Below, one piece after another: positions 1,268 through 45,990 of a DNA stretch of 50,307 bases. The DNA is from a virus (Duplodnaviria > Caudoviricetes): positions 1 through 50,307 of the IMG/VR virus record IMGVR_UViG_3300038309_000012; one strand, 5' to 3'. The position numbers and the translations under genes are program-made. Every line of letters starts with the position of its first letter. Position 1 is the stretch's first letter. The notes below the pieces were generated by a model, which had not been told where the DNA came from, did not search any database, and saw only the letters and a program-made list of their open reading frames with translations.

Positions 1268-1292
1268 AGCCCGTTTAATTTTTGAACAGCCT
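1268..1292. repeat. 25-bp palindrome copy 1
   Basis: AGCCCGTTTAA TTT TTGAACAGCCT; supplies the TAG stop of 1291..2349. Confidence 0.85.
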
Positions 1293-2349
1293 ATAATAAA
1301 TTCATAGCGTTTACAATTTTAGGTTTGTATACTTTATCTATTCGCTTATTTACTTTTGTAGCAATAGGGAAAAGACTAGCATCTTGCTTATATATGCGTA
1401 AATTAGTTGTACTTTGTTTACCTTTGAATTGAGTTACTATTGAATCATAACTAACTTTAGTATTTTTGTTTATCCATCTACGACATTCAGCGCATAGGTC
1501 AAAAACTCTATTTTTTACACGTTTTAGGTATTTCTCATCAGCACGATTTAACAGCTGTGAAAAGCGAACGTCTAGTAATTCTTCTCCACCTATTACATAG
1601 GCAGCTACCAGCATGCCTAAAAAACGAGGATTATTAGGTGAAGCTTTATCTATATAAGAAGCAGTAAAGAAGCCTCCATCATTGAAGGGGCCTAAATGGA
1701 CTACACCAGCTGTTGTTAGAGACCAATTAGAATAACCGAATAATAAAGGTTTAAAACTAATTAGAAAATCTCCTCCTCCCCAACACAGACGATGAGTCGA
1801 TAACGGGTAATAACCCCTAATATGCTCCCATACTGAACGTTTGATAACCATAGGCATACTTCGAAGTGGGGATTTGAAGTAAGGGAGGGTAGTCTTGTAA
1901 CCATGTAAGCGTAAGCCAGTGAACTTTTCAACGTCTCTATCGCAAAAGGAGTCTAGTTCATGAGCAGATGAATAGCACATAAGGCCAAAAAGTATGCCTA
2001 GGTTATCAATGCGATCTGCGAATGTTACTAATTTGTTAATAGCATTTTTCATTACTAGACAGTGTGAGTCTAGAATAAGAATATATTCACCTGTTGAATG
2101 CTGCACAGCTAAATCACGCGCGCTAAATAAGCAAGCAAAGTTTTGTTCTATTATTTTAACTTCGTTTTTAGTAGTGAAAGCATCAAATAAGTCGTATAGA
2201 GTTTGCCGTTTAGCTGAATCTTCAGAATTATTAACTATAATTATCTCAGCAGTAAAAGAACAACTCTTTAATGATTCCATAACTGAACGTATAGTTATTA
2301 GGCATCCAAAAGGATCATTTCTTTCTGAGATAATTATAGATAATTTCAT
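1291..2349 (-). CDS. GT-A fold (GT2-like) glycosyltransferase
   Basis: LSIIISERN, EIIIVNN, ARDLAVQHSTGEYILILDSH (DxH) and WGGGD motifs. Confidence 0.85.
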   Translation of the reverse strand: MKLSIIISERNDPFGCLITIRSVMESLKSCSFTAEIIIVNNSEDSAKRQTLYDLFDAFTTKNEVKIIEQNFACLFSARDLAVQHSTGEYILILDSHCLVMKNAINKLVTFADRIDNLGILFGLMCYSSAHELDSFCDRDVEKFTGLRLHGYKTTLPYFKSPLRSMPMVIKRSVWEHIRGYYPLSTHRLCWGGGDFLISFKPLLFGYSNWSLTTAGVVHLGPFNDGGFFTASYIDKASPNNPRFLGMLVAAYVIGGEELLDVRFSQLLNRADEKYLKRVKNRVFDLCAECRRWINKNTKVSYDSIVTQFKGKQSTTNLRIYKQDASLFPIATKVNKRIDKVYKPKIVNAMNLL

Positions 2350-3341
2350 CAGTTATTCCAAGGCTGAGTGGTTAATAGTTCGTCAAAAGTGATAGTTTTG
2401 TGCGCATCTAGCCAATCTTTTTCTTTCTGGCCCATTTGTATAGCTGCATCCCACCACTTGTCTATATCTATGAATTGACCGAAGCGACGTTTTATAGAAG
2501 CTTTGTTCCTTTTCATCATAGATTTACCACCTATAACATAACAACTTATCAGGAAACCTAATGAGTGTGGGCCTTCTCCTGAAACTGACCATAGGCGATA
2601 ACGATCTCTAGCAGTTACTTTAGCTACTTTTACAGCATTAGGGTTAGTTGTGGTGTCTACTTTTGGGAAAGGTCCGATGTGAATGCCTGGAGAAGTAGGC
2701 ACTGCGTAGTTCTTATAGCCGAGCATCCAAGGTTTGATGCCGATATGCATGTCTCCACCGCCCCAACTAAGACGGTGCTCTGCAAGCGCACCATAGCCGT
2801 TAATAGTTTTCCATAGCTCTCTACGACAGATCCAAGGCATACCTTTCCATGTGATTGTTCTAACTGTGTCATATGATTTGTTCCAGTTTCCTAGTTCACA
2901 TTCGCTCATGTCTCGATCATGACGAGAGGAAGTTTCATGTTGATGTGCCCAGTTGATAGGTGCATGAGCGAAACCTATAGTTGGATCACCCTGTCTTGAT
3001 TCCATAAAGTTGTAGAGATCAAGGAACATATCGTTGCCTATTAGCATGTGGGAATCAACACAAGCGATGTATTTTCCAGTTGAATGTTCAATAGCTGTTT
3101 CACGTGCTGTGAAGAGGCAAGGATAGTCTTGACGATAAACTTTCAGTAGCCCATCTGAGATGTAGCCAGAAGGAAGTACACTTTTAATTTTGTCATACCA
3201 TTCAGGGTCGGAATTGTCTACTATGATGATCTCGCAGTTTTCAAGGCCCAGAGGCTTGAGTTCTTCAACACATGATCTAAAAGTGACTGCGAGCATAGAG
3301 ACGTCGTTTCGGTTAGATATGACTACTGAAAGTTTTTTCAT
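2349..3341 (-). CDS. GT-A fold (GT2-like) glycosyltransferase, paralogue of 1291..2349
   Basis: LSVVISNRN, EIIIVDNS, ARETAIEHSTGKYIACVDSH, WGGGD, GIHIGPF. Confidence 0.87.
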   Translation of the reverse strand: MKKLSVVISNRNDVSMLAVTFRSCVEELKPLGLENCEIIIVDNSDPEWYDKIKSVLPSGYISDGLLKVYRQDYPCLFTARETAIEHSTGKYIACVDSHMLIGNDMFLDLYNFMESRQGDPTIGFAHAPINWAHQHETSSRHDRDMSECELGNWNKSYDTVRTITWKGMPWICRRELWKTINGYGALAEHRLSWGGGDMHIGIKPWMLGYKNYAVPTSPGIHIGPFPKVDTTTNPNAVKVAKVTARDRYRLWSVSGEGPHSLGFLISCYVIGGKSMMKRNKASIKRRFGQFIDIDKWWDAAIQMGQKEKDWLDAHKTITFDELLTTQPWNN

Positions 3342-3530
3342 CTATTTCTCGTCAAGAGGTTTGTCAGTTACAAAACGGAGTACTATGTTAAGTACAGTGT
3401 AGAACGCTGTTACAGTTTCTACAGACATTTCATAACCAAATGATTTGGAAATTGCTACTATAGCGGCCATTAGTGCATTAATATTCACTGTTTTGCTCTT
3501 ACCAGTGAGTGCAGCTATAAGTTTATTCAT
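3342..3530 (-). CDS. Small membrane protein, holin-like
   Basis: 62 aa, two hydrophobic stretches, KSKT...N start and NIVLRFVTDKP end typical of small phage holin-like proteins. Confidence 0.5.
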   Translation of the reverse strand: MNKLIAALTGKSKTVNINALMAAIVAISKSFGYEMSVETVTAFYTVLNIVLRFVTDKPLDEK

Positions 3531-4071
3531 TGACTACCTCCTTATCTTCTATAGTGACTAAAAGCCCAGATTCACGTGCAGCTTTTAGTCCACGCTCTTT
3601 GAAAGCATTTATCTGATCCATATTAGCTGTGACGTTCATGCTTTGAGATTGGACTTTAGTTGGTGCTCTGTGTCCTGCGATATCCATTACTATAGTATCA
3701 GCAGTTTCTTTTTTCATCTTGTAATCGACAGAAGGATTTTCAAAAATTTCTGAGTAAACTTCAAGTGCGCGTTCAGTCAGTTCATTGACTCGCTGGTGGA
3801 ATTGGATAGCTTCTCCATCCCGTTCTTCACGAAGTCTAGAAAGTTTTTCCTTACCTAGATCAGAGTTAATAGTGTTAGAGACAGTCTGGGGGCTTATGTT
3901 AAGAAGTTCGGCGATCTGTGTATTTTTGTACCCTTGGAGTTTAAGCAGGATGATCTCATGAGAGTGTTGCCATAGTTGTTGTATATTAATTTGACGCGTA
4001 CCCTCTTCGACGCGGCGCTTGTCTGGTATTCTTACTTCGAAACCGTATAGTGATTTTTCTGTCCCTTCCAT
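3523..4071 (-). CDS. HTH protein, probable terminase small subunit
   Basis: HTH LQGYKNTQIAELLNISPQTVS followed by a helical region; first gene of the late operon. Confidence 0.55.
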   Translation of the reverse strand: MEGTEKSLYGFEVRIPDKRRVEEGTRQINIQQLWQHSHEIILLKLQGYKNTQIAELLNISPQTVSNTINSDLGKEKLSRLREERDGEAIQFHQRVNELTERALEVYSEIFENPSVDYKMKKETADTIVMDIAGHRAPTKVQSQSMNVTANMDQINAFKERGLKAARESGLLVTIEDKEVVNE

Positions 4072-4103
4072 AACCCTTAATCCTTTTGTAAGTTTATGAT
4101 TAT

Positions 4104-4202: not shown

Positions 4203-4227
4203 AGACTGTTTAATAACTAAACAGACT
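4203..4227. repeat. 25-bp palindrome copy 2
   Basis: AGACTGTTTAA TAA CTAAACAGACT. Confidence 0.8.
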
Positions 4228-4483: not shown

Positions 4484-4512
4484 TTGACATTTATGATACT
4501 AGGTGTTATATT
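4484..4512 (+). promoter_or_regulatory. Rightward sigma70-type promoter (early arm)
   Basis: TTGACA-17 bp-TATATT with TGn extended -10 and an A-rich upstream region. Confidence 0.7.
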
Positions 4513-4667
4513 GAGGGTAAAGATTGTGAGGGAATGTGTTGAAGGTAATACACGCCCGAAAAACACCTAGGCGATCGAAGAAAGTGGTTGACAAATTGTG
4601 ATTAAGTTCTTTGACAAATTGGTTATATTTATATTATTTATTATACGGGCTAGTGGAAAGGGCCGAT

Positions 4668-5033: not shown

Positions 5034-5058
5034 AGAGCGTTTAATTTTTGAACGGTCT
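5034..5058. repeat. 25-bp palindrome copy 3
   Basis: AGAGCGTTTAA TTT TTGAACGGTCT. Confidence 0.85.
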
Positions 5059-5654: not shown

Positions 5655-5937
5655 TTTAATCATTGTAATTTGTTATCATTGTAATCATTGTAATCATTGT
5701 ATGTGTGTATCCCACATATGCCCCCCCGTTTTGTAACCTGTAATCATTGTATGCGTGTAATCTTTGTATGTATAAAAAATATGTTAAAGAAAAAAAATTT
5801 AGGAATACCTAAAAAATTTTTTCATACATTATTACGGGGATACATTGGTGACGGATTACAATTTGGGGGGGGGATATGTAGCATACGGGGTTATTTTGGT
5901 TACGTTGGTTACGTTGATTACAAATTTAAAGATTAAA
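5655..5937. repeat. Imperfect ~130-bp-arm inverted repeat with 9-bp iterons (candidate replication origin)
   Basis: AATCATTGT units on the left, TGGTTACGT units on the right. C7 tract 5721-5727 mirrored by G9 tract 5865-5873. AT-rich centre ~5796. Confidence 0.75.
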
Positions 5938-5959
5938 CAGTCTAAGAAAGGAAAAAGAG

Positions 5960-6151
5960 ATGGAAAATTTAAGTAGTAAAGTATGTCCTAAGTGTGGAAA
6001 AGAAATTGTTATCATTAACGATATTAAAAGTCACGAGTTAATACTATGGTGCTGTGATGGTCATTTATCATTGCAAGATAAAAGTGATGGATCAGTGCTG
6101 CTATTTGAATATGTTGGGGTTATAGAAGCTGGGGAAGCATATAATAAATAA
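5960..6151 (+). CDS. Small zinc-ribbon protein
   Basis: CPKCG...CCDGH; GAAAGG RBS. Confidence 0.6.
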   Translation: MENLSSKVCPKCGKEIVIINDIKSHELILWCCDGHLSLQDKSDGSVLLFEYVGVIEAGEAYNK

Positions 6152-6882: not shown

Positions 6883-7032
6883 ATGTTTACATTATGGTTT
6901 GAGGGGTTAGTTTGGGTTATAGACGAGATTAATCCTGGTATATACAATAACACATACACTAGTGAAATACTATCAAAAGCTTTAGATAATGACTCGTGTA
7001 TGATAAAGCTCAGTAGATGGTTAATGTGGTAG
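6883..7032 (+). CDS. Small hypothetical protein (49 aa)
   Basis: AAGGAG RBS, open frame by hand; stop is the palindrome's TAG. Confidence 0.6.
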   Translation: MFTLWFEGLVWVIDEINPGIYNNTYTSEILSKALDNDSCMIKLSRWLMW

Positions 7033-7055
7033 ATTGTTTAAATTTTAAACAGCCT
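7031..7055. repeat. 25-bp palindrome copy 4
   Basis: AGATTGTTTAA ATT TTAAACAGCCT. Confidence 0.85.
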
Positions 7056-7087: not shown

Positions 7088-7381
7088 ATGAAAAAAGTAG
7101 TGATTAACAGATGCTATGGTGGATTTGGACTGTCACATGAAGCTATCATGCGGATAGCAGAAATTAAAGGCATAAAATTATACACTGAGGATAATTTCGA
7201 TGTACATGGTATTTCCAGAGAAGATAAAACATTAGTAATGGTAGTAGAAGAATTAGGTGAAAAAGCTAATGGCGATTGTGCTGAATTAAAAATAATAGAA
7301 ATACCAAATGACGTTGAATATACAATAGAAGAATATGATGGTTCTGAATGGATAGCAGAGGTGCACAGAACATGGAGTTGA
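7088..7381 (+). CDS. Conserved phage hypothetical protein
   Basis: KVVINRCYGGFGLS...IEEYDGSEWIAE motif common in phage early regions; AAGGAGG RBS. Confidence 0.8.
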   Translation: MKKVVINRCYGGFGLSHEAIMRIAEIKGIKLYTEDNFDVHGISREDKTLVMVVEELGEKANGDCAELKIIEIPNDVEYTIEEYDGSEWIAEVHRTWS

Positions 7382-7383
7382 TT

Positions 7384-7408
7384 AGACCGTTTAAATTTTA
7401 AACAGTCT
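7384..7408. repeat. 25-bp palindrome copy 5
   Basis: AGACCGTTTAA ATT TTAAACAGTCT. Confidence 0.9.
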
Positions 7409-9506: not shown

Positions 9507-9821
9507 ATGATCCAAGGAAAAGACCTTGCATGGCATTATGATGCCTGTATCGAGATGTGGAATGAGATAGCAGAAGGGATGGATGCTAATGAGTCAGACT
9601 ATGATATTAGTGTCAAGAAAAAAACTACATTATGTAAAATGTATTATACTCATAGTAATTGCTTTGCTTGTGAAGCATTTAATTGCGATGACTGTCCATT
9701 TGCAGTATATGGTAATTGTGGTGAAATTGGCTCTCCTTACAAGAATTTCGAAGACCATAAAGGAACTCAACAAGACGCAATCGCCATAGCACAATTGTTT
9801 ATAGACTATTATCCTGAATAG
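9507..9821 (+). CDS. Cys-rich hypothetical protein
   Basis: CFAC...CDDCP; AAGGAG RBS; ends on the palindrome's TAG. Confidence 0.7.
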   Translation: MIQGKDLAWHYDACIEMWNEIAEGMDANESDYDISVKKKTTLCKMYYTHSNCFACEAFNCDDCPFAVYGNCGEIGSPYKNFEDHKGTQQDAIAIAQLFIDYYPE

Positions 9822-9844
9822 ACTGTTTAATTTTTAAACAGTCT
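9820..9844. repeat. 25-bp palindrome copy 6 (perfect)
   Basis: AGACTGTTTAA TTT TTAAACAGTCT. Confidence 0.95.
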
Positions 9845-11536: not shown

Positions 11537-11561
11537 AGTCTGTTCAAAAATTAAACAGTCT
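11537..11561. repeat. 25-bp palindrome copy 7
   Basis: AGTCTGTTCAA AAA TTAAACAGTCT. Confidence 0.9.
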
Positions 11562-13876: not shown

Positions 13877-14202
13877 GTGAAATTATTAGCTTTGGCTACA
13901 ACGAAGATTATGTAGTAGATGAATCATTTGATTTAAACCAACTACGTAAATTAAGACGAACTAAAAAAGTAGGAAATGTACGTACTTTAGATGAAAGTAA
14001 TAATAACATAACTGTTAAATTTGGTGCTACTATAACTATTGATGAAGAAGTAGTAAACGATGAGCTTCTACAAGAAACCAAAGAATCTCTTGAAAACTAT
14101 CGTAAATGGTATCATCAAGAACAGGAAAAAGTTAAAAACCTGAATGCTGACATAGATTGCATAAAGCAACAGATTAATGAGCTTAAAGGAGAACATTTCT
14201 AA
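13873..14202 (+). CDS. Hypothetical protein
   Basis: GGAGG RBS, ATGA overlap. Confidence 0.7.
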   Translation: MSEIISFGYNEDYVVDESFDLNQLRKLRRTKKVGNVRTLDESNNNITVKFGATITIDEEVVNDELLQETKESLENYRKWYHQEQEKVKNLNADIDCIKQQINELKGEHF

Positions 14203-14537
14203 TGCCTAAACATCTTTATTGCGCCCAGTGTGGTGAGGAACTCCTACAATTTCGCAAAGCTGTGAAAGGTGAAATCTTCGACTTCATCCAGCCCCACACT
14301 TGCGCTGAAGTTAAGGAACCTACACTGGAAAATGAGCCTATACCAGTTAAGAAAGAAAAACCTGGTACGGCTGAACTATCAAAAATGTTTGATGAGTTTC
14401 AGTTCGTTCAAAAATTAAACGGTCTGGGCAAATCAACAGGTGATAAACGTGAACCTGAAGTACTGCGTAAGGAGAAAGAAATAGAACCAACCTCTTCTGC
14501 TCCTTTAGCAGTGCAACAAATGATTAAGGATAAGTAA
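14202..14537 (+). CDS. Hypothetical zinc-ribbon protein
   Basis: CAQC...HTC; contains a palindrome copy in frame. Confidence 0.7.
   Translation: MPKHLYCAQCGEELLQFRKAVKGEIFDFIQPHTCAEVKEPTLENEPIPVKKEKPGTAELSKMFDEFQFVQKLNGLGKSTGDKREPEVLRKEKEIEPTSSAPLAVQQMIKDK
14401..14425. repeat. 25-bp palindrome copy 8 (intragenic)
   Basis: AGTTCGTTCAA AAA TTAAACGGTCT. Confidence 0.85.
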
Positions 14538-17368: not shown

Positions 17369-17782
17369 ATGTCACTTACAGACTACAGCCAGTACGAATC
17401 AATGATCCAAGACGCCGAAGCACCTAAAGCCCTTCCTGCTGGTACGGAAGTAACTGCACGTATTATCTCAATTCGAGAAGGCGTAAACGAAGAGACTGGA
17501 ATCGGTTGGAGGATGGTAACCTATGATATTCCAGACGAACCAACCGCCAGAGAAATGACCGACTTCTTTGGCGTCCTCGATCAAGAAAAGATGGACGCTA
17601 AACGCTTCGCACGTGAACTGTATAAGTTCAAAAACTTTGCCGCAGCTATTGGCCTTGACTATACCCAACCATTTGATTGGGAAGAACTGGTTGGCCGAGA
17701 GTGTTGGGTGATTCTTGGAATTCAGAAAGATGAAGAATTCGGTGATAAGAATCGTGTAACTAAGTATTTGTCTGGAAATTAA
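17369..17782 (+). CDS. Putative ssDNA-binding protein (DUF669-like)
   Basis: ALPAG..TARI...ELVGREC...KNRVTKY; context after nuclease and NTPase. Confidence 0.65.
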   Translation: MSLTDYSQYESMIQDAEAPKALPAGTEVTARIISIREGVNEETGIGWRMVTYDIPDEPTAREMTDFFGVLDQEKMDAKRFARELYKFKNFAAAIGLDYTQPFDWEELVGRECWVILGIQKDEEFGDKNRVTKYLSGN

Positions 17783-17784: not shown

Positions 17785-17809
17785 AGACCATTTAAAAATT
17801 AAACAGACT
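17785..17809. repeat. 25-bp palindrome copy 9
   Basis: AGACCATTTAA AAA TTAAACAGACT. Confidence 0.8.
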
Positions 17810-17862: not shown

Positions 17863-19053
17863 ATGCCCAACCATCGTGTTTTAATCCTAGGAATTGACGG
17901 CTACATTGGTTATCCTCTAGCACTACACCTTATCAAGCAAAATTTCGAAGTGTGTGGAGTAGATAACCTAAGTCGTCGTGATAGAGTACGCCACATAGGT
18001 GGAGCGTCTTTAACCAACATTGCTTCCTTTGATGATCGCGCTAATTATTTATCCTCGTTTAATAATTTCATAGATAACATGTCTCGTATTGATGTAGATT
18101 ACTACGATACAATATCTGCTGCAATAAAATATTTCAAACCTGATACAATAGTTCACCTAGCGCAAATGCCTAGTGCTCCATGGTCTATGATCAATGCCTA
18201 TCATGCGTATCAGACACAGCATGAAAATTGTATGGCTAATCTTAATGTACTCTGGGCTATGAAACAGCATTGCCCTAATGCACATTTGTTGAAGTTAGGA
18301 ACTATGGGAGAGTATGGCACACCTAATTGTGACATACCTGAAGGAGAGATTCCTAAGGAATGTTTAACTGGTGGTGTAGGCCCTTATGTAGGAGGTTACG
18401 ATGCTGGATGCCCTATGTCAGGCCTAATCTTCCCACGCCAACCTGGATCATTCTACCACCTATCCAAAGTCTTCGATACTTACAATGTAGACTTCGCTTG
18501 CCGTAACTGGGGCTTACGCTCTACTGATGTAATGCAAGGAGTAGTATATGGTCTTAATAAACCCAACAATAACATTGAAATTACTAGATTCGACTACGAC
18601 GAATACTTTGGCACTGCTATCAATCGTTTCTGCACTCAAGCTATTATCGAATATCCCATTACAGTCTACGGAAACGGAAACCAGACAAGAGGATATCTAC
18701 CACTTAAAGATTCTATCCAGTGCTTAACCTTAGCAATAGAAAATCCTCCTGAAGATGGAGAATGTAGGACATTCAATCAGTTTGAGGAAATCTATTCCAT
18801 TAACGAACTCGCTGACATCGTAAATCGTCAGGCACAAAAGCTAGGACTTAATCCAGGAATCACGCACATTTCTAATCCACGAAAGGAAAAGGAATCACAC
18901 TATTACAATCCAGAACATAGTAAACTTTTAGACTTAGGTTACAAACCTACAGATGATCTTGAAGGTGAGGTAGGAATCCTACTCCAACAACTCATGCCTT
19001 ACAAAGATAGGGTTAATAAAAAAGTTATTATGCCTAAGACTAAGTGGGAGTAG
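17863..19053 (+). CDS. sqdB: UDP-sulfoquinovose synthase (SqdB/SQD1/Agl3 family)
   Basis: GIDGYIG, VDNLSRR, SAPWSM, KLGTMGEYGTP, PGSFYHLSK, WGLRSTDVMQGVVYG, RFDYDEYFGTAINRFC, QTRGY, FNQF, NPRKE...HYY. Confidence 0.92.
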   Translation: MPNHRVLILGIDGYIGYPLALHLIKQNFEVCGVDNLSRRDRVRHIGGASLTNIASFDDRANYLSSFNNFIDNMSRIDVDYYDTISAAIKYFKPDTIVHLAQMPSAPWSMINAYHAYQTQHENCMANLNVLWAMKQHCPNAHLLKLGTMGEYGTPNCDIPEGEIPKECLTGGVGPYVGGYDAGCPMSGLIFPRQPGSFYHLSKVFDTYNVDFACRNWGLRSTDVMQGVVYGLNKPNNNIEITRFDYDEYFGTAINRFCTQAIIEYPITVYGNGNQTRGYLPLKDSIQCLTLAIENPPEDGECRTFNQFEEIYSINELADIVNRQAQKLGLNPGITHISNPRKEKESHYYNPEHSKLLDLGYKPTDDLEGEVGILLQQLMPYKDRVNKKVIMPKTKWE

Positions 19054-19270: not shown

Positions 19271-19295
19271 AGACTGTTCAAAAATTAAACAATCT
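19271..19295. repeat. 25-bp palindrome copy 10
   Basis: AGACTGTTCAA AAA TTAAACAATCT. Confidence 0.9.
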
Positions 19296-20015: not shown

Positions 20016-20199
20016 CATCTCAACTATGTCTTACTCAGACGCAGTTGAATACCTAAAGTCTCTACGCTATAGTAGGCGCATCCCTAAACGTCAACAGTCT
20101 AAAGCTACACAAGAAAAGAAGGCTAAAGCTAAAGCACTACCAAAGATTTCAAAAGTAGACGCACAACAATTACTTAAGTTATTAGGAGGATCAAACTGA
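19987..20199 (+). CDS. Small basic hypothetical protein
   Basis: Lys-rich ORF coupled to the next gene. Confidence 0.6.
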   Translation: MNLSSIQNPNISTMSYSDAVEYLKSLRYSRRIPKRQQSKATQEKKAKAKALPKISKVDAQQLLKLLGGSN

Positions 20200-21512
20200 T
20201 GTCAATCAAAGTTGGTAAAGTAGCTATGATCGAACGATCTAAAATCATCATAGGAGAACGCGCTCGTAAAGACATGGGTGACTTGACTTCGCTAGAAACC
20301 TCAATGACCGAGCGTGAAATGATTCAGCCTATTGCAGTAATCGACAATGAAGATTCTACTTACGAACTCCTAACTGGCGGCCGTAGAATGGCTGTGTTAG
20401 AAAAGCATGAAGTAGATGTAATCCCTTGTCGTATTTATTCTAAAGATATCTCTGACCATGAACGTAAGTCTATTGAACTAGCTGAGAATCTTTACAGAAA
20501 AAATTTCGAATACTATGAACATGACGCACTAGTAGCCCAAATCCACTCACTTCAACAACAAGCGCATGGAGTAAAACTAGGTGGTCCAGGTACTGGATGG
20601 GGACTCGCTGAGACAGGAGAACTGGTTGGCAAATCTAAAGGTTCAATTAGCTCAGCCCTCAAACGTGCGGAAGCTAGAGACAAATTCCCTGAACTCTTCT
20701 CTACATGCAAAGACCAGAAAGACGCTATGAAAGTTATGTCTAAAATGTCTGACCTAATAGTTCGTGAAGAAGTAGCTAAGCGTATCGAGGAGAATAAAAC
20801 AGGAGTTGTTAACGACCTAGCCAAACGCTACATACTAAAAGACTTCTTTGAAGGGGTAAAAGAAATACCTGATAATACTTACAACTGGGTGGAAATAGAC
20901 CCTCCTTACGCAATCGATTTAAAAAACGCTAAGAAAACAATAGATGGAAAAGCTATTCAAGAACATGACTATAATGAAATCCCTGCTAAAGAATACAAGA
21001 GATTCTTAACCAGACTTTTCAAAGAATGCTATCGTGTAATGGCTCCTGACTCATGGCTTATCTGTTGGTTCGGCCCTGAGCCTTGGTTTGAATCAGTTTA
21101 TGATTCTCTAATCAAGGCAAACTTTAGTGTTAAACGTATTCCTGGCTTGTGGGCTAAACCTTTAGGCCAGTCCAAACGTCCTTATGAATATCTAGGAAAC
21201 GCCTATGAAATGTTTTTCTATGCTAAGAAAGGAGAACCTAAACTCCACAAACCTGGTAGATCTAACATATTCCAATTCAGTCAGGTTCCACCTAACACCA
21301 AAACTCATCCTACCGAACGCCCTATTGAAATGATTAAAGAGGTATTAGACACTTTCGCTGCCCCTAATTCAAAAGGCTTAGTTCCTTTTCTCGGATCTGG
21401 TAACACCTTACTAGCGGCCTACGAACTAGGTATGGAATCTATTGGATTTGAGCTAGGCAAAAGCTTCAAAGATTCATTTCTAATCAAAGTTAATAAGAAG
21501 TATAGTGGGTAA
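20199..21512 (+). CDS. ParB-like domain + HTH fused to N6A/N4C DNA methyltransferase
   Basis: MIQPIAV, LLTGGRRMA, IELAENLYR (ParB); LAETGELVGKSKGSISSAL (HTH); IDPPY, HPTERP, FLGSG (beta-class amino-MTase). Confidence 0.88.
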   Translation: MSIKVGKVAMIERSKIIIGERARKDMGDLTSLETSMTEREMIQPIAVIDNEDSTYELLTGGRRMAVLEKHEVDVIPCRIYSKDISDHERKSIELAENLYRKNFEYYEHDALVAQIHSLQQQAHGVKLGGPGTGWGLAETGELVGKSKGSISSALKRAEARDKFPELFSTCKDQKDAMKVMSKMSDLIVREEVAKRIEENKTGVVNDLAKRYILKDFFEGVKEIPDNTYNWVEIDPPYAIDLKNAKKTIDGKAIQEHDYNEIPAKEYKRFLTRLFKECYRVMAPDSWLICWFGPEPWFESVYDSLIKANFSVKRIPGLWAKPLGQSKRPYEYLGNAYEMFFYAKKGEPKLHKPGRSNIFQFSQVPPNTKTHPTERPIEMIKEVLDTFAAPNSKGLVPFLGSGNTLLAAYELGMESIGFELGKSFKDSFLIKVNKKYSG

Positions 21513-21839: not shown

Positions 21840-21862
21840 ACCGTTCAAAAATTAAACAACCT
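21838..21862. repeat. 25-bp palindrome copy 11
   Basis: AGACCGTTCAA AAA TTAAACAACCT. Confidence 0.88.
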
Positions 21863-25063: not shown

Positions 25064-26284
25064 ATGGAAAACCTAAAGCGAATTCTACCTAACTGGATAG
25101 ACGCCTTTATGAAATACACAGAGAATACTGAACCACCTATTCTCTTTCGTAAGTGGACTGCCTTATCTTGCATAGCTGCAGCACTACAACGAAAGTGTTT
25201 TATAAACTGGGGTACTTCCCTAACGTTTTATCCAAACTTATACATTATTCTAGTAGGCCCATCAGCTACTGGCAAAGGTACGGCTATGTCACCGGCATTA
25301 GATATCATAGACAAAATCCCATCTATAAAACAAGCTGCTAATGCTACATCACTACAGGCGCTCATTAGGAAACTCAAAGATACTAACCTTACTGATATTG
25401 ATATTAGATCAGGCAAGCAACAGTTTCACTCATCTATGACAATCTTCAGTAAGGAATTTACTGTCTTCCTCGGCTATCATAATCGTGAACTAATGGCCGC
25501 CTTATGTGATTGGTATGACTGTGATCGTAAATGGAGTTATGAAACTATATCTAGACAAAAGGAGGAGATCAATGGAGTATGGGTAAATATGATAGGTGGT
25601 ACAACACCTGACTTGATTCAGTCTTCCCTACCTATTGAATCAATTGGTGGTGGTCTTACTAGCCGAATCATATTTGTATTCGAGGAGAAGAAAGACAAGC
25701 TAGTAACTGTGCCTATTCAATCATCAGCAGATCTTGAACTAAAAGAAATGCTAATAAATGATTTAGAAAAGATATCCCGCTTATCAGGGCAATTCGGTTA
25801 CACGGAAGACTTCTGCACAACGTGGTCAGATTGGTGTGTTGAAGCTGAGAACAACCCACCTTTTTACGACCCAAAGTTTGATGGTTATCTAGGTCGTCGT
25901 CGAACTCACTTAATGAAGCTAGCAATGATCGTATCTGCTTCTAAAGGCTCACATGATCTTATCCTTACTAAGGATGATTTAGAAGATGCAATCCAACTAT
26001 TGGCAGAAGTAGAAGTTAAAATGGGCTTGGTATTCAAAGGTGTTGGTAAATCTGATATATCTTCACTAATGAATAAATCTATAAACTTCTTCGCATCATC
26101 AAAGGTTAAACAAATACCTATATTCCAATACGCTAGACATTTCAACAACGATATGGATAAATCTATGATGGATAGAGTATTTGCTACACTTGAGGCTTCT
26201 AGAATGATTAAGATTGTAAATAAGCCTGGTGGGGATAGTTATATTGAAGTACTTGAAGATATAAATAGACCGTTTAAAAATTGA
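25064..26284 (+). CDS. DUF3987/YfjI-like P-loop protein, putative replicative helicase
   Basis: PNLYIILVGPSATGKGT, MIGGTTP, GGGLTSRIIFV. Confidence 0.7.
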   Translation: MENLKRILPNWIDAFMKYTENTEPPILFRKWTALSCIAAALQRKCFINWGTSLTFYPNLYIILVGPSATGKGTAMSPALDIIDKIPSIKQAANATSLQALIRKLKDTNLTDIDIRSGKQQFHSSMTIFSKEFTVFLGYHNRELMAALCDWYDCDRKWSYETISRQKEEINGVWVNMIGGTTPDLIQSSLPIESIGGGLTSRIIFVFEEKKDKLVTVPIQSSADLELKEMLINDLEKISRLSGQFGYTEDFCTTWSDWCVEAENNPPFYDPKFDGYLGRRRTHLMKLAMIVSASKGSHDLILTKDDLEDAIQLLAEVEVKMGLVFKGVGKSDISSLMNKSINFFASSKVKQIPIFQYARHFNNDMDKSMMDRVFATLEASRMIKIVNKPGGDSYIEVLEDINRPFKN

Positions 26285-26291
26285 ACAGACT
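26267..26291. repeat. 25-bp palindrome copy 12
   Basis: AGACCGTTTAA AAA TTGAACAGACT; spans the end of 25064..26284. Confidence 0.9.
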
Positions 26292-26581: not shown

Positions 26582-29500
26582 TTACTTAGCTCTCAACCGC
26601 ATAACTTCCTTCCTAAAATCCTCGCTAATAACCCCACCAGCCTTAGAGACAGTAGCATATTCCTTCCACAGCTGCTGTCTCTCCTTTTCATTTGCATTAT
26701 CTAAACGATCAACAAATAGTTGCGCCCTAACTTCTGGACTCAAACCTTTAAGCCTTTTCCAGAAAGATTTCTCAGGTAGATTTTTAATAGCTAATTCATA
26801 CTTAAACCTATCAATCAATCTTTTTCTTTCATCTAAATCTTTAACACGCCTAATAAAATCAAACACGTCTTTTCTTTGGTTAGTACCTTCATACAAATAT
26901 CCGTCTGTTAGTCTATCTACTTCTCTACTATTAATAAATCTTTTTAACGTGTCAGCTTCTCCAGCTTCATCTATCTTCTCCGCATGTTTTGAATAAGGAT
27001 TAGTCACACCAAAGAATCTTTTAATTAAAGGTAACTTACTCAAAGTCATTGCTAGGTGCTGTTCTTTCTTGTCTTTAGGTAAATCTCCAAAAGTCTTTTC
27101 ATATCCTTGATTAAGTAACCAACTCCACACTGTGCCATTAGTTACTAATTCATTAACAGAATATTTTAATCTCTCAGGACTCAACCCAGTTTTCTCTCCA
27201 ATATCTATAAAAGCTTTAGGAGTTTCTCCTGGTATATACTCCTCTTTGCTTTGTGGCCAACTGAAAGGTTTATCAGTCTGTCGCCAAATATCTTCATTCA
27301 TCCAGAAATCTTTATTAGTAATATAACCTATAGCTGCTGACATAGTAGGAGGTAAAATCTCTGTAACTCCAATAGGACTTTGTTCTTTAAAGCCTTTAAT
27401 AACTCTATCAACATCAAAATCTTCATCACCTAACCATTTATCAGCTGAAGCTTCAAACAAAGCTTTGAAAAACTTCTGGCCAGGATCAATAGGAATTTTA
27501 AAATATGGATAACGTTTTTGGTTCTGTTCATCATAAAAACCAAATTGATCTCCTAGAGGGATAATCAAATAGTTATTATTAACCATAGAACCTTTAAGTT
27601 CTTTAGTTGTTTCAGGACTTAGTTGTTTTGAGGCTAAGTAAACTCCAGTAACTAACGCACCGAATTGAGCTAATTTATAAGTTCCTTCTAAAGGTTTTTC
27701 TTTCAAGCTTCTAAACAATCCTCTAGTACCTTGAATACTAGCATTTAAATAAGGAACAGCATTATCAATTGCTTTTGATATACTACCACCCTGACCAAAG
27801 TCCATATAATCCCTAGCCACAAAAGTAGCTTCTTGTGTAATGTCTTTATTCTTTCTAGCTTCTTCCACGCTAATACCTTGTTCTTTAGCTCTCTGCTTTA
27901 TGACTCTTTCTCTTATAGCTAATCGCGTAACAAGCTCAGAAGTTTCTCCAAAGAAGCCTATATAATCCATAAACTTATCAATAGCAGAATCTATATGCCT
28001 ACCACGCTGAAAAATTCTACCTTGGTGGACTAGAAATTCCATACCTCCACCTTCTTTAATATATTGTTCATACCTAGGCCCACGATTCCAAGCATCGCCT
28101 GCAACGTCTACTATATCCTTACCAATCTGTAAACCGTATATTGGTAAGTTACTATTATAAGGACTAACAGCCTTACCATTATTGTACATACTAGTAGCAA
28201 ACCAAGCATGCATAACATCACGAGGTATATTAGCTAAAGCAAATCCCCAGTTTATACCAGTAGCCATAGTCCTAAGTACTGGAGACCCAGACGCATATCT
28301 TAACAGTGTGCTCATTCTATAACTTAATTCAGGTGATCCATTTAACCATCCTTTAGAAAATTCAGGAGAAAGATACATAGCTTTACGTTGGCCACCTTCA
28401 AATACAAAAATTCTATTCCATCCTGAAGGTATGATGCTATCTTTATTCTTAATCCTTACCATGTCATTAGTAGGATTAATCCTAGCAATTTCCAGCAAGG
28501 CTTGATTAGCTTTATTATTTAATACTCTACCATAACTTCTATTAAATACTTCCAAAGCCATTATTTCTGAACTAGGTTCAAATATATCTGTTTCTCGTCC
28601 TTTAGCTAATGCTTCAACTCCTGAATCAAACACAGTTTTTTTCTTATTACCTAATCTAGCTTGATACTGCTTATCGTAAATTTCTACTAGTTTCAACTTT
28701 CTATAATTATATGAACTAAGATCATTAAACTCTTGTTCACTTATTACACCAGAATCTAACATATCTTTAAGCGGCTTCTTCATCCACTCATAGTATGCTT
28801 TAGCTTTACTTCTAATAATAGCTTCTTTTTCTGGGCTGAGTTTTTCTATCTTACCAAATAGTTCACTATACGCAGCAGTACTTTTAGGTTCAAGACCTTT
28901 AGGAAAATTAAACTTACCTGGATCTTTATATCTAGCTATTTCATTCATACGGTCTGATAGGATTAAAGTATCCAGTATATTTTTTTCTTTACTATTTAAT
29001 CCATCATATACTTCTTTTCTCATCTGAGTAAGCATATTTGCAGCCTCAGCTGAGGCACCTTTAGACAATACAAATTTCTGAAGTGCTCTATATCCTTCTT
29101 CTCCATGACTAAGTAAAGATTTCCTAACATTTGCGACGTCTACAAAGGCTTTTGTGGCAGCATCTTTAATCATACCTAAAGCTTGCATAGGTTTAAATGA
29201 CTTAACACTACTAGCATATTTAGTATAATCAGATACATTTTTAGCGTCTATTGGATTTACATCCATAGAAGTCTCAGCTATTTGCTGTTCAGACTGTTCA
29301 ATTTTTAAACGGTCTACTCCTCTCGCCCACTTTGCAGCTTCACTAACATTACTTTTCCATAGTTCAAATTCGCTATTACTCCTAAACATGTTTCGTATTT
29401 CTGACGCTTTACCGGCTAAGTCACTCAACGTATTTTGTGTAGCAGTAATATCTACATCTTCACCATGATACCATCTATTAACATCATTGATTAATTTCTG

Positions 29501-30748
29501 TGTAGCTACACCTGGGTCGTCTATTTCTTTACCTTCAAATAGTTTAGCATACCTAGCTGTTTTCTCAGCGTCTTGAAAGTAAGGACTTTCTTTATTTATC
29601 TGCCTTTCACTTTCTACTTTAATAGCTATGTCTTCACTAATCTGATTATTAAGCTCTTCTGTTTTCTGCTCAAGATTTATTTTCTTCTCATTTATAATCT
29701 CTTGATTTTTAACTTTAGTAGGTTCATCAACTACAGAGTTATTCATCTCTTGCATTTTGTCTATTTGTATTCTTTCATTTATGGTTTCGTCTAACTGATT
29801 TATTCTTCTTTCTGATACTTTCCTAGGCAAACCTCTCCATAGAAAGAAAACATCTAATGCTGTATCAAACATTACTTCTTCTGCTGGACGATCAGTAAAT
29901 GGATTACCTCCTACTTCCAAAGCTCTTTGAGCATTCAAGCCTATAAGGCCAGTTATAATTCTAGCTGCTTGTTGCGCTCCTTCTTTTGGAAACATACCTC
30001 TAGCTATGCCAAAAACTGCACCAGTAATAGCTCCACTTTTAGTAGCATCATATATCTTACCTGCTGCTTGTGTGAAAGTAGGTTGCTCTAAGGCTTCTCC
30101 TGTAGCAGTTAAGCCAATAGCAGGGCCTAAAACAGCAGCTTCGCTAAGAGCTGATTTTAACACTCTACTTATAACTGATCCTTCAGCTGAGGCAGCAGGT
30201 AAGAATTTAACTATTGGTTTAGTAATACTTTCTACTATTTTAGCCGGTCCAACTAATAATCCAGCTAATGAACCTAAACCATTACCTATATACCCACTAG
30301 CATCAGTAGGTTTAAAATCTTCTTCACCAGTTAGAGTAGATCTAATGGCTGGTAGTACTCCCAAAGTAACTACGTTAGTAAATCCACTAGCTGCTTGTTC
30401 TATAAACTCAGGAGAATTTCTAAATTCAGCTGTAGTTTTTCCATTTTCATTAGCCAATAATTCCACTACAGCTTGAGCTCTAGCGCGATCACTTAATTGG
30501 GGTTGAATGTCTGTGCCAAACCAACTATTTATTTTACCTATAGCTTGTTCTATTAGATTATTTTTCTTTTCATAAGGTTCTAGTACAGATATCCTGTCTG
30601 GCTCATTAGTTTGTTTTCCCCCAACAAACATTTGATCAGTGAGTGACTGAGGACTAGCCTCAGTCTTTCCACTAAACAATTGATCAGATAAAGATTTACT
30701 ATCCTGTTGTTCTTTGTTAAATAGTTGATCAGTCAAGTTTAATGTCAC
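26582..30748 (-). CDS. Large internal virion/ejection protein (LPD38-like C-terminal region)
   Basis: 1388 aa, last late gene; F..ANIPRD, MDFGQGG, VPYLNASIQG, YFKIP motifs typical of podovirus large polyvalent proteins. Confidence 0.7.
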   Translation of the reverse strand: MTLNLTDQLFNKEQQDSKSLSDQLFSGKTEASPQSLTDQMFVGGKQTNEPDRISVLEPYEKKNNLIEQAIGKINSWFGTDIQPQLSDRARAQAVVELLANENGKTTAEFRNSPEFIEQAASGFTNVVTLGVLPAIRSTLTGEEDFKPTDASGYIGNGLGSLAGLLVGPAKIVESITKPIVKFLPAASAEGSVISRVLKSALSEAAVLGPAIGLTATGEALEQPTFTQAAGKIYDATKSGAITGAVFGIARGMFPKEGAQQAARIITGLIGLNAQRALEVGGNPFTDRPAEEVMFDTALDVFFLWRGLPRKVSERRINQLDETINERIQIDKMQEMNNSVVDEPTKVKNQEIINEKKINLEQKTEELNNQISEDIAIKVESERQINKESPYFQDAEKTARYAKLFEGKEIDDPGVATQKLINDVNRWYHGEDVDITATQNTLSDLAGKASEIRNMFRSNSEFELWKSNVSEAAKWARGVDRLKIEQSEQQIAETSMDVNPIDAKNVSDYTKYASSVKSFKPMQALGMIKDAATKAFVDVANVRKSLLSHGEEGYRALQKFVLSKGASAEAANMLTQMRKEVYDGLNSKEKNILDTLILSDRMNEIARYKDPGKFNFPKGLEPKSTAAYSELFGKIEKLSPEKEAIIRSKAKAYYEWMKKPLKDMLDSGVISEQEFNDLSSYNYRKLKLVEIYDKQYQARLGNKKKTVFDSGVEALAKGRETDIFEPSSEIMALEVFNRSYGRVLNNKANQALLEIARINPTNDMVRIKNKDSIIPSGWNRIFVFEGGQRKAMYLSPEFSKGWLNGSPELSYRMSTLLRYASGSPVLRTMATGINWGFALANIPRDVMHAWFATSMYNNGKAVSPYNSNLPIYGLQIGKDIVDVAGDAWNRGPRYEQYIKEGGGMEFLVHQGRIFQRGRHIDSAIDKFMDYIGFFGETSELVTRLAIRERVIKQRAKEQGISVEEARKNKDITQEATFVARDYMDFGQGGSISKAIDNAVPYLNASIQGTRGLFRSLKEKPLEGTYKLAQFGALVTGVYLASKQLSPETTKELKGSMVNNNYLIIPLGDQFGFYDEQNQKRYPYFKIPIDPGQKFFKALFEASADKWLGDEDFDVDRVIKGFKEQSPIGVTEILPPTMSAAIGYITNKDFWMNEDIWRQTDKPFSWPQSKEEYIPGETPKAFIDIGEKTGLSPERLKYSVNELVTNGTVWSWLLNQGYEKTFGDLPKDKKEQHLAMTLSKLPLIKRFFGVTNPYSKHAEKIDEAGEADTLKRFINSREVDRLTDGYLYEGTNQRKDVFDFIRRVKDLDERKRLIDRFKYELAIKNLPEKSFWKRLKGLSPEVRAQLFVDRLDNANEKERQQLWKEYATVSKAGGVISEDFRKEVMRLRAK
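29291..29315. repeat. 25-bp palindrome copy 13 (intragenic)
   Basis: AGACTGTTCAA TTT TTAAACGGTCT, encoding RLKIEQS. Confidence 0.9.
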
Positions 30749-31828: not shown

Positions 31829-31853
31829 AGATTGTTCAAAATTTAAACGGTCT
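31829..31853. repeat. 25-bp palindrome copy 14
   Basis: AGATTGTTCAA AAT TTAAACGGTCT; supplies the stop of 31852..32715. Confidence 0.9.
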
Positions 31854-35792: not shown

Positions 35793-35817
35793 AGACTGTT
35801 TAAAAATTAAACGGTCT
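35793..35817. repeat. 25-bp palindrome copy 15
   Basis: AGACTGTTTAA AAA TTAAACGGTCT. Confidence 0.92.
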
Positions 35818-35843
35818 GGGACAGTCATCGCTGACCATCCCAG
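35815..35843 (-). terminator. Hairpin after major capsid gene
   Basis: - strand CTGGGATGGTCA-GCGA-TGACTGTCCCAG, running into a palindrome. Confidence 0.6.
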
Positions 35844-38415: not shown

Positions 38416-38440
38416 AGTTTGTTTAATTTTTAAACAGTCT
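38416..38440. repeat. 25-bp palindrome copy 16
   Basis: AGTTTGTTTAA TTT TTAAACAGTCT; supplies the stop of 38439..38903. Confidence 0.88.
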
Positions 38441-41135: not shown

Positions 41136-41160
41136 AGAGTGTTTAATTTTTAAACGGTCT
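41136..41160. repeat. 25-bp palindrome copy 17
   Basis: AGAGTGTTTAA TTT TTAAACGGTCT; supplies the stop of 41159..42001. Confidence 0.88.
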
Positions 41161-45662: not shown

Positions 45663-45956
45663 CTACTTATAATAAGTAACATGTACTGTGGCAGTTCCAG
45701 CAGAAGTAATCATACGAAGATTTCTTACAGCTTTCGGATCTTCGAAGTATAAATTCTGCGTCGCATATACCAGATGTCCATCAGTAGCACTAGGATCACC
45801 ACCATCAATACGGTAACGGATATTAGTGGTTTCAATAGTAAGAAGCACAGCCGAGTAGGTATTTCTTTTAGTTTCATCTAATCTCCTAACTGCTGTAGTA
45901 ACAGATATTTTTTCATAGTCGAAAGGAGTTTTGCCTATTACTTTTATTAACCGCAT
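45663..45956 (-). CDS. Small conserved structural protein
   Basis: IRYRIDGGDPSATDGH; GGAGG RBS. Confidence 0.65.
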   Translation of the reverse strand: MRLIKVIGKTPFDYEKISVTTAVRRLDETKRNTYSAVLLTIETTNIRYRIDGGDPSATDGHLVYATQNLYFEDPKAVRNLRMITSAGTATVHVTYYK

Positions 45957-45965
45957 TTAACCTCC

Positions 45966-45990
45966 AGTCCGTTTAATTTTTAAACGGTCT
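45966..45990. repeat. 25-bp palindrome copy 18
   Basis: AGTCCGTTTAA TTT TTAAACGGTCT; supplies the stop of the 45989 gene. Confidence 0.9.

Follow-up and report, generated by a model that had tools for sequence, protein, structure and literature searches.

The 50,307-nt phage sequence analysed here (the window, meaning the whole stretch) carries 18 copies of a 25-bp palindrome that are real, non-random, intergenic, evenly spaced, polar and not hairpins, and that recur across a phage family in lineage-specific versions. It is proposed that these palindromes are duplex docking sites of the parS/NBS/OB kind, at which a ParB-family protein encoded by the phage itself (20199-21512, + strand) would bind as a homodimer, an assignment that we rate as somewhat better than an even call. 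This protein has three domains, is predicted to dimerise and possesses an HTH segment that co-varies with the site.

Sequence, placement and spacing of the palindromes

All 18 copies listed in an earlier note on this DNA are present: AGNNYGTTYAAWWWTTRAACRNNCT matches exactly at 16 of the listed starts (0.00 expected from 100 shuffles) and, with up to three mismatches allowed, at all 18 and nowhere else in the window (0.11 expected), the copies at 4203 and 17785 having one mismatch each. The AG/CT ends and the A/T-only 3-bp centre, which the note had called invariant, hold in 18 of 18 copies. The half-site that it placed at 5933-5943 is real: it represents the right arm, still intact, of a decayed 19th copy (about 5919-5943, aligned by eye), whose left arm is degenerate and which lies in the usual position between a stop codon and an RBS, here that of the gene at 5960-6151. 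A near-identity search with both arms against 50,697 phage records returned no match. The window contains no tRNA and no Rfam family.

The sites are almost confined to short gaps between co-directional genes; 14 of the 18 include at most two coding bases although coding sequence makes up 95.5% of the genome, and an ATG follows 9-17 nt 3' of the site in 10 of the 16 non-genic copies (counted by eye). The copy at 1268-1292 shares its AG with an upstream TAG stop and has the ATG of a large end ORF 5 nt downstream, and TAG stops are also overlapped by the copies at 9820-9844 (ATG 16 nt downstream) and 21838-21862 (followed by a small ORF and PolA). The stops of the genes at 7088-7381 and 17369-17782 end 2 nt upstream of the copies at 7384-7408 and 17785-17809, respectively, while the copies at 11537-11561, 19271-19295 and 45966-45990 have an ATG 16, 17 and 9 nt downstream. 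Entire 25-bp gaps are occupied at 31829-31853, between two minus-strand genes, and at 38416-38440, a position kept in four of five genomes. Of the others, 4203-4227 lies in a 539-bp divergent control region, 131 bp from a TerS-like gene, 5034-5058 in the early region, 35793-35817 between a G+C-rich hairpin 3' of the capsid gene and the next gene, and 41136-41160 upstream of the portal gene; 7031-7055 is a further exact copy. The copy at 26267-26291 extends over the final 18 nt of the DUF3987 gene, and a copy is found at or overlapping that 3' end in all five genomes. Where no gap is available, copies are kept inside genes: one (14401-14425) lies in the 111-aa gene at 14202-14537 and has in-gene counterparts in the orthologues of all four complete relatives, and another (29291-29315) lies in the 1388-aa gene at 26582-30748, with in-gene copies in the orthologues of relatives G001-G003 and in the giant gene of G004.

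The complete relatives (n=4) carry 17, 21, 17 and 15 copies, with none for a reversed control pattern. Some site positions shift by one gene between relatives; the number and the spacing persist. In all five genomes the sites are more evenly spaced than random placement allows, with mean spacings of 2.4-3.2 kb and maximal gaps of 4.0-5.9 kb against about 9-11 kb expected; with uniform placement P lay between 0 of 20,000 simulations and 0.044, and with sites drawn from gene boundaries it was at most 0.003. For the window itself, a maximal gap as small as that observed had P = 0.0076 under uniform placement and P = 0.003 with gene-boundary placement (20,000 simulations each). The claim that start-to-start gaps never exceed about 4.84 kb around the circle does not stand; the largest gap is 5,609 bp, from 45966 to 1268 across the contig ends, a value that is uncertain because there is no overlap between these ends and no in-frame join of the two terminal ORFs.

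Among 80 loci with orthologues of the ParB-methyltransferase, the palindromes are lineage-specific and share the same architecture, the changed cores in related phages including TAATTAAA, CCCATTAA, CCGTAAAA and TGTCCCAA. With the finder used here the lattice was undetected in Vibrio phage VS-ABTNL-3 and Microcystis phage Mel-JY34, both of which are distant and encode a ParB_N-methyltransferase fusion, and in a few orthologue loci (L349, L359 and L386). The nearest named phage is assigned to a Desulfofustis host by CRISPR spacers, and the portion of that pink-berry phage paper considered here does not mention the palindromes (PMC10370329). The sequencing runs matching the window were four DNA runs, available as contigs, from one marine-sediment study, with no RNA run among them; one of the four may be the source of the window.

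The ParB-methyltransferase as candidate reader

The 437-aa protein encoded at 20199-21512 combines an N-terminal CTPase fold (GGRR, ENLYR), a ParB/Noc-type HTH at about residues 128-165 and a beta-class DPPY N6_N4 methyltransferase at about residues 206-427; Pfam assigns ParB_N (E 4e-8, above the cutoff) and N6_N4_Mtase (E 2e-20). In phmmer searches, residues 30-186, which cover GGRR, ENLYR and the HTH, align to Noc (E 7e-7 to about 1e-6), with GGRR and ENLYR falling on the GERR and ENLQR of Noc/Spo0J, and across 29 orthologues the residues of GxRR and ENxxR are either invariant or conserved to at least 90%. Foldseek matched the structure model to the Noc chains 7nfu_B and 7ol9_B over about 200 columns, matches that include a Noc-DNA complex (2.5e-9 and 1.5e-8), and to beta-class methyltransferases (3e-15); helices are modelled at residues 136-143 and 147-162. 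Pfam HTH_ParB gave no match in the window protein and a weak one in that of the Desulfofustis phage (E 0.04), and the canonical ParB C-terminal domain is absent from the window protein. The predicted homodimer scores 0.75 against 0.00 for the best control, with at least 96% of contacts agreeing between runs and a partner pLDDT of at least 75; in calibration, the mark applied was reached by 20 of 30 solved pairs and by 1 of 23 single chains. The predicted interface (residues 293-357 and 385) lies in the methyltransferase domain. Solved beta-class methyltransferases such as CcrM are dimers, and likeness to them may explain why the homodimer passes.

When single columns were compared with motif class, the association was as strong as in the ParB-methyltransferase, or stronger, in PolA, the exonuclease and the DUF3987 protein; motif class therefore largely tracks phylogeny, and because the column-wise mutual information was not specific to the ParB-methyltransferase it was replaced by a sliding-window scan in which the rest of the protein served as control. 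Divergence that follows that of the palindrome is confined to windows starting at residues 126-146, that is, in the HTH (r = 0.28-0.40); elsewhere in the protein r stayed at or below 0.19, and none of 1000 label permutations reached 0.40. The HTH window is the highest among the seven proteins scanned, followed by the DUF3987 protein and the ligase at 0.30. The HTH is thus singled out in this phylogeny-controlled window test only, and its lead is modest (0.40 vs 0.30). Site identity is not set by any one residue: a code that pairs K/R at 147 with G at -7 fails on L384, L397 and L402, and of 17 class-A proteins 14 have K at position 147, the other three having T, N or P and keeping the same site.

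Three candidate binders had been named in the earlier note, and the alignment and fold match to Noc together with the HTH-window covariation favour the ParB-methyltransferase among them. The TerS-like HTH protein (3523-4071) was rejected as reader, since its recognition helix has barely changed in the Desulfofustis phage even though the palindrome there differs. Six small conserved proteins (121, 111, 96, 137, 80 and 236 aa) match no DNA-binding family at E up to 5, and the 96-aa protein has no meaningful PDB match.

Alternative readings of the sites

The palindromes are not hairpins. At the four variable pairs of 157 oriented sites from relatives, Watson-Crick pairs number 60, 103, 73 and 103 against 73.5, 100.4, 71.9 and 90.4 expected for independent halves, so that compensatory base-pair covariation is absent. 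Predicted sense RNA stems are weak and variable (0 to -11.7 kcal/mol, mean -5.0, with 2 of 18 folding to 0.0), no site has a U tract or a G+C-rich stem, and the palindromes have no Rfam match. The suggestion of the earlier note that the site is read as a duplex by a dimeric protein is supported by these results. The location between a stop codon and the next RBS, with the ATG so near, would suit a single-strand RNA or DNA hairpin (a terminator, RNase processing site, mRNA stabiliser, translational operator or hairpin promoter), and so would the polarity of the sites relative to transcription, which the earlier note had missed: three variable pairs, read in sense orientation, have 137 C.A mismatches against 44 of the G.U type. 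It is the sense strand, however, that is the less pairable one, and copies persist within coding sequence; taken with the missing covariation and the weak stems, this makes a hairpin function very improbable. An N4-type template-strand hairpin promoter, considered because the sites are polar, was rejected on the lack of covariation and of any RNA-polymerase-like gene (PHROGs, Pfam).

Nor are the palindromes promoters. No conserved flank (-35/-10 at fixed distance) was found in 139 oriented sites, promoter-like sequences occur at the shuffle level (64 vs 63.2) without sigma-70 association, and the ATG is too close to the sites for a sigma-70 arrangement. Terminator association was likewise absent, and the view of the earlier note that these are not ordinary promoters or terminators is upheld. 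A scan of 185,579 species' genomes for a host regulon returned single-copy matches only, bar mis-binned phage contigs, and hence no bacterial regulon with the palindrome; the only phage-related contigs in the bacterial collection were small ones binned into one MAG.

Selfish palindromic elements or recombination boundaries, homogenised within genomes and mediating module exchange, would account for the lineage-specific variants shared by the copies of one genome, as in concerted evolution, and for the copies that flank variable cassettes, such as those at 41136 and 45966 around non-conserved tail genes. Many boundaries between conserved and variable genes nevertheless lack a copy, homology, inspected by eye, is lost within genes and not at the copies, PHROGs and Pfam revealed no transposase, recombinase or integrase, and neither even spacing nor in-gene maintenance is expected under selfish spread; we consider this reading as remote as that of hairpins. 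Inspection of the orthologue table by eye gave no support to a module-boundary role. Integron attC sites, Xer/dif sites, serine-invertase sites and REP/RAYT were set aside, since the genome encodes neither a recombinase nor a transposase and their sites have a different geometry. An integrase, a CI/Cro-like repressor and an excisionase were also not found by PHROGs or Pfam.

Two other proteins could bind the sites as duplexes. One is a different dimeric protein of the phage, for example the DUF3987 helicase/'primase' (25064-26284), for which the palindromes would be helicase-loading or priming sites every few kb. The A/T-only centre between half-sites recalls an initiator site with its melting region, the mean spacing is of the order of Okazaki-fragment length, a copy sits at or overlaps the 3' end of this very gene in all five genomes, and the best separation of the two main motif classes is given by columns of this protein (MI 0.98, as high as the class entropy). 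Against this, no DNA-binding domain was identified in the protein (Pfam gives DUF3987 only, and there is no PDB sequence match), it is kept at 30-31% identity in the lattice-less Vibrio and Microcystis phages, its best controlled window (r = 0.30) lies inside the ATPase-like domain and below the ParB HTH, and a 50-kb genome would not obviously need 18 origins. We therefore regard it as an unlikely binder, though the least unlikely of the alternatives weighed here. Somewhat less probable still is a Fis-type nucleoid-associated DNA-bending protein of the host, used by the phage for compaction, topology or transcription. Positions 6-20 of the palindrome (GTTYAAWWWTTRAAC) fit the 15-bp symmetric E. 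coli Fis motif GNTYAAAWTTTRANC given in Table 2 of PMC6907758 at every specified non-central position, including Y-4/R+4, and indirect readout by DNA bending typically goes with an A/T-only centre, as described in that paper. The fit is to GNTYAAWWWTTRANC in 16 of 18 window copies and to the strict form in 3 of 18. The strictly conserved flanks at +/-11-12 fall outside the Fis motif, however, and in related phages the architecture is kept while the four changed cores given above no longer fit; cores that differ between lineages and co-vary with a phage HTH are unexpected for a host factor, as is the lack of multi-copy occurrence in the bacterial genomes scanned. Fis occurs mainly in gamma- and beta-proteobacteria. 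The window derives from marine sediment, and the nearest named phage belongs to a Desulfofustis host (PMC10370329).

Proposed function and comparison with known systems

Docking of the phage's own ParB-family protein is thus the reading that we favour. In the proposed mechanism, two ParB-type HTH units would read the inner 8-bp half-sites (YGTTYAAW) across the A/T-only centre, and the invariant G:C pair at +/-11 is probably contacted by another part of the protein or by a partner; an HTH dimer alone accounts neither for the outer AG/CT nor for the polarity. The methyltransferase domain would replace the usual C-terminal dimerisation domain of ParB. As the roughly 18 sites leave no gap above about 5.6 kb, a protein loaded at a site would be able to reach any stretch of the genome. 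We infer site binding, a nucleotide switch, sliding, a methylation target and a benefit to the phage: nucleotide-gated sliding, as in ParB, Noc and KorB, would be the most likely mechanism, and the tethered adenine methyltransferase would mark or protect phage DNA in cis. In its fullest form, the ParB-methyltransferase would be a sequence-loaded, nucleotide-gated sliding methyltransferase that loads only at the phage palindromes, diffuses a few kb and methylates the phage genome in cis, sparing the host chromosome because it has no loading sites, with the spacing set by the sliding range; we offer this tentatively, as possible rather than probable. The earlier note had envisaged a site needed every few kb, with parS-like clamp loading among the options; the over-even spacing in all five genomes agrees with such a site, and packaging, ejection and recombination gained no support.

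The literature searched yielded no account of a palindrome lattice of this kind, nor of a DNA target for the ParB-methyltransferases of phages. The defined 25-bp candidate site provides these proteins with a testable DNA target, even with an uncultured host, and the paired variants of site and HTH that occur in nature form a ready data set for the recognition code of the ParB family. If the protein spreads from its sites, the sliding-clamp principle of ParB and KorB would extend from segregation and silencing to enzyme delivery and would account for selective modification of the phage's own DNA; if methylation in cis is true, this would be replicon-specific epigenetic self-marking. We know of no described example of a DNA-modifying enzyme that is targeted to one replicon by sliding from loading sites.

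Among multi-site systems, the L5 stoperators, the phiC31 conserved inverted repeats and the P1 C1 operators have tens of binding-site copies in short intergenic gaps throughout the genome. These temperate-phage systems serve lysogenic repression, whereas no repressor, integrase or lysogeny module was found in the window (PHROGs, Pfam); stoperators are asymmetric, and to our knowledge even spacing has not been reported for sites of this type. ParB-parS is similar in its N-terminal fold with GxxR and ENxxR, its HTH and its palindromes on the same replicon, and the phage half-site starts with TGTT, like that of parS. It differs in that no ParA/Soj-type ATPase was found here (PHROGs, 72 proteins; Pfam, 68 proteins), no canonical C-terminal domain is present and the 18 sites are dispersed rather than clustered near an origin; a partition role for the phage protein is unlikely. 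For the N-terminal 200 residues, the top match in the PDB by both sequence and fold is Noc of Bacillus subtilis, a CTP-dependent paralogue of ParB that has numerous palindromic sites (NBS) dispersed over the genome and plays no part in partition. Unlike the phage protein, Noc lacks an enzyme domain, carries a helix for membrane targeting and dimerises through a canonical C-terminal domain, and the NBS half-sites abut (8+8), while the phage site is 8+1+8 with extra conserved flanks.

KorB and its OB sites (with KorA/OA) on the IncP plasmid RK2 likewise pair a ParB-family protein with a many-copy short palindrome on a mobile replicon of about 50-60 kb, RK2 carrying 12 OB sites. The differences are several: the phage looks lytic and has a methyltransferase in place of the KorB C-terminal domain, Pfam and PHROGs reveal neither a KorA-like partner nor a ParA, and its 25-bp sites have an odd A/T centre and are evenly spaced rather than placed at promoters. 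KorB is a CTP-gated sliding clamp acting at kilobase range (PMC11790492). Closest in domain architecture are the ParB-CTPase-fold fusions to N6_N4 methyltransferases surveyed in PMC12704722, which are the same in this respect as the phage protein. The parts of the survey considered here describe them as frequent in phages and prophages, count them in phages with the most common fusions of ParB, suggest anti-defence functions for them and show that the ParB CTPase fold may bind CTP, ATP or GTP (PMC12704722). Those parts name no DNA target site for the fusions, and for this the window and its relatives provide a candidate.

Distribution and conservation of the palindromes

The palindrome lattice is real and non-random. 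The 18 copies of the 25-bp palindrome (consensus AGnnYGTTYAA-WWW-TTRAACRnnCT) listed in the earlier note are exact at 16 of their 18 coordinates; a search allowing up to three mismatches recovers all 18 and nothing elsewhere in the window, against chance expectations of 0.11 and, for exact matches, 0.00. The half-site described at 5933-5943 also exists and is the intact arm of a decayed nineteenth copy. The genome is 95.5% coding, yet 14 of the 18 copies hold at most two coding bases; of the other four, one shares bases with a doubtful ORF, one covers the final 18 nt of the DUF3987 gene (25064-26284), and two are fully in-gene, at 14401-14425 in a gene for a 111-aa protein (14202-14537) and at 29291-29315 in the giant gene for a 1388-aa protein (26582-30748). 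The intergenic gap consists of little more than the palindrome and a ribosome-binding site; the AG of the palindrome is part of the TAG stop of the upstream gene in 8 of the 18 copies, and an ATG, read by eye, lies 9-17 nt downstream in 10 of the 16 non-genic copies. Inspected by eye, the two in-gene copies and their orthologous sites in four complete IMG/VR relatives (G001-G004) are translated in fixed frames into conserved peptides, approximately K-F-V-Q-K-L-N-D-L in the 111-aa protein and D-R-L/S-K-I-E in the giant protein, so that DNA and protein constraints are superimposed there.

The maximal gap of about 4.84 kb, claimed to hold even around the circle, is confirmed inside the contig (4,830 bp) but not across its unjoined ends (5,609 bp with the contig taken as a circle). 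A maximal gap as small as that of the window occurs in 0.76% of uniform placements and 0.3% of gene-boundary draws. The four relatives, with core proteins at 55-79% amino-acid identity, carry 17, 21, 17 and 15 copies (reversed control pattern, 0) and all share the over-even spacing, with maximal gaps of 4.0-5.9 kb and P values from 0/20,000 to 0.044 for uniform placement and at most 0.0008 for gene boundaries. All five genomes have a copy within the 111-aa gene and one that lies at the 3' end of the DUF3987 gene or overlaps it, and the position inside the giant gene is conserved as well; other copies are displaced by one gene among relatives, with number and spacing maintained. This mixture of fixed and shifting positions fits a need for coverage, not control of particular genes.

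The genome, a single complete contig of 50,307 bp that constitutes the entire record, is two-armed. Genes on the + strand from about 4.6 to 26.6 kb have replication and recombination functions, their products including a ligase, a PD-(D/E)XK exonuclease, a Sak4-like ATPase, a ParB-methyltransferase fusion, a UDG-fused family-A polymerase and the DUF3987 protein; the genes for virion functions (SU10-type portal, major capsid, large terminase and the 1388-aa protein) are on the - strand. The divergent region near 4.1-4.6 kb holds strong sigma-70-like promoters, and the + arm is headed by a near-consensus sigma-70 promoter (TTGACA-17-TATATT, upstream TG) and tandem TTGACA boxes (4484-4512, 4590-4640); evidently the phage relies on a host polymerase that recognises canonical promoters. 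Just past the major capsid gene, in the sense of the - strand, a G+C-rich hairpin (35818-35841) is followed at once by copy 15 of the palindrome (35793-35817); this hairpin looks like a terminator or stabiliser, because its G.U pairs arise only in the - (sense) orientation. The family-A DNA polymerase (22029-24542) has at its N terminus a domain of the uracil-DNA-glycosylase superfamily (Pfam UDG, E 1e-18, residues 8-150), which precedes the 3'-5' exonuclease and polymerase domains. This lytic-looking phage also has genes for two family-2 glycosyltransferases and for an NAD-dependent epimerase/dehydratase (1291-3341, 17863-19053); their orthologues occur in only some relatives, and the enzymes could serve DNA or surface-glycan modification. 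Positions 1-230 are 96% identical to 49535-49764, which ends 543 bp short of the contig end; the two segments fall within large - strand ORFs running off the contig ends (3-1262, 47809-50307), which are out of frame if the contig is directly circularised, and the repeat probably reflects a tail or host-recognition gene with internal repeats, at which the assembly broke.

Hairpin, promoter and host-regulon readings

The earlier note favoured a duplex site for a dimeric protein, needed every few kb, over a hairpin or an ordinary operator, and the lack of covariation together with the over-even spacing supports it. In the relatives, 186 sites have enough flank and 157 of them could be oriented from the neighbouring reading frames; in these 157, Watson-Crick pairs at the four variable arm pairs come close to the expectation for independent halves (observed vs expected, 60 vs 73.5, 103 vs 100.4, 73 vs 71.9 and 103 vs 90.4), as does the pairing pattern of the window's own 18 copies. 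RNA stems are predicted, with weak and uneven stability (sense mean -5.0 kcal/mol, two copies at 0.0, extreme -11.7). The sites are polar: in the sense orientation of the 157 sites, C.A mismatches are more frequent than G.U (137 vs 44 over three pairs), and in the stems predicted for the 18 copies of the window the sense strand pairs less well than its complement (-5.0 vs -6.7, Wilcoxon P 0.03). We infer that selection may maintain the site as a duplex and at the same time weaken the hairpin that mRNA or an exposed strand could form.

Promoters would be expected to carry -35/-10 boxes; neither such a pair nor any other conserved flank accompanies 139 oriented sites of the relatives, a purine-rich stretch downstream being the sole accompaniment, and sigma-70-like and terminator-like counts over 3.5-23 kb equal the shuffle expectation. 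A host regulon is likewise not seen in a pattern scan of one genome each of 185,579 species, which returned at least 123 stretches. Among the matches listed, only six stretches come from relatives of this phage, all on small contigs assigned to one MAG; the others occur once per genome, share no recurrent neighbouring gene and are for the most part perfect hairpins of A+T-rich Bacteroidota. The palindrome can also be read as a Fis-type site, in that its inner 15 bp (positions 6-20 in every copy, for instance 9825-9839) agrees with the E. coli Fis motif given in PMC6907758 at every specified non-central position, Y/R degeneracy included; however, this reading is weaker because the core changes among related phages while the flanks stay constant.

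The ParB-methyltransferase as candidate reader

DNA-binding candidates are few in the genome. Among those named in the earlier note, the 437-aa ParB-methyltransferase (20199-21512, +) is favoured, its HTH windows tracking palindrome divergence, and the TerS-like HTH protein (3523-4071) is disfavoured, its near-constant recognition helix being almost the same in Desulfofustis phage LS06-2018-MD01, whose palindrome differs. The N-domain of the ParB-methyltransferase is of the ParB type and carries GGRR and ENLYR, its HTH aligns to Noc and Spo0J, and its fold matches Noc, including the Noc-DNA complex. At its C terminus the protein carries a beta-class amino-methyltransferase domain of the DPPY type, which we take to be adenine-methylating. 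A homodimer via this domain is predicted (score 0.75, best control 0.00), with runs agreeing in at least 96% of contacts and partner pLDDT of at least 75; in calibration, 20 of 30 solved pairs but also 1 of 23 single chains passed the mark. Resemblance to beta-class methyltransferases of solved structure, which are dimers, may account for this result.

Residue 147, where the recognition helix begins, shows the strongest association of any column with the two main motif classes, and seven of the 12 top class-associated columns fall within residues 135-152. Associations are as high or higher in the polymerase, the DUF3987 protein and the exonuclease, and the separation of the classes is about equally good in every protein, so motif class in large part reflects phylogeny; no single residue accounts for the site version. 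When local divergence was compared with palindrome divergence, with the rest of the same protein regressed out, only windows starting at residues 126-146 of the ParB-methyltransferase responded (r 0.28-0.40; all others at most 0.19). The value of 0.40, reached by 0 of 1000 label permutations, is the top window of the seven proteins scanned, a modest margin over the next (0.30, DUF3987 protein and ligase), and this controlled covariation is the main, indirect support for the ParB-methyltransferase as the putative reader.

Lineage-specific versions and known systems

IMG/VR contigs hold at least 190 stretches that match the pattern. This pattern is absent from the closest named phage, Desulfofustis phage LS06-2018-MD01 (capsid identity 51%), which has nine copies of another palindrome of equal span (core GTCCCAA-N-TTGGGAC), likewise in intergenic gaps; the host of this phage was assigned via CRISPR spacers, according to PMC10370329. 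Orthologues of the ParB-methyltransferase at 80 IMG/VR loci (44-58% identity) accompany many versions of one architecture, namely outer AGW, an 8-bp half-site, an A/T-rich centre, the mirrored half-site and WCT, with inner half-sites such as CCGTTTAA, TAATTAAA, CCCATTAA and CCGTAAAA, among others; by our own motif finder, a few orthologue loci show no lattice. In some lineages (L339, L394, L401, L407, L191) the G:C pair at +/-11 is strand-flipped, giving CTW...WAG (e.g. CTT...AAG) in place of AGW...WCT, and the flip is compatible with an unchanged inner half-site, which suggests a second contact that evolves separately. The fusion can occur without an obvious lattice, as none was detected in Vibrio phage VS-ABTNL-3 or Microcystis phage Mel-JY34, distant relatives with a ParB_N-methyltransferase fusion. 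In the latter, a cultured phage (L408), a short CCCATTCT-like word is repeated just upstream of several ribosome-binding sites in intergenic gaps.

A 2025 survey found ParB-fold fusions to N6_N4 methyltransferases, of unknown function, to be frequent in phages, and names no DNA target for them in its available part (PMC12704722); such a palindrome lattice is not described in the literature searched. As the best mechanism, towards which we lean slightly, the palindromes would be docking sites, and probably also spreading sites, of the ParB-methyltransferase dimer. PHROGs and Pfam scans found no ParA partner for the phage protein, and the canonical C-terminal domain is missing, so that, in contrast to ParB-parS, a partition system is unlikely. 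The closest known systems are KorB-OB on RK2 (PMC11790492), Noc-NBS and ParB-parS, and the ParB-methyltransferase has the fold and motifs of the KorB/Noc/ParB family.
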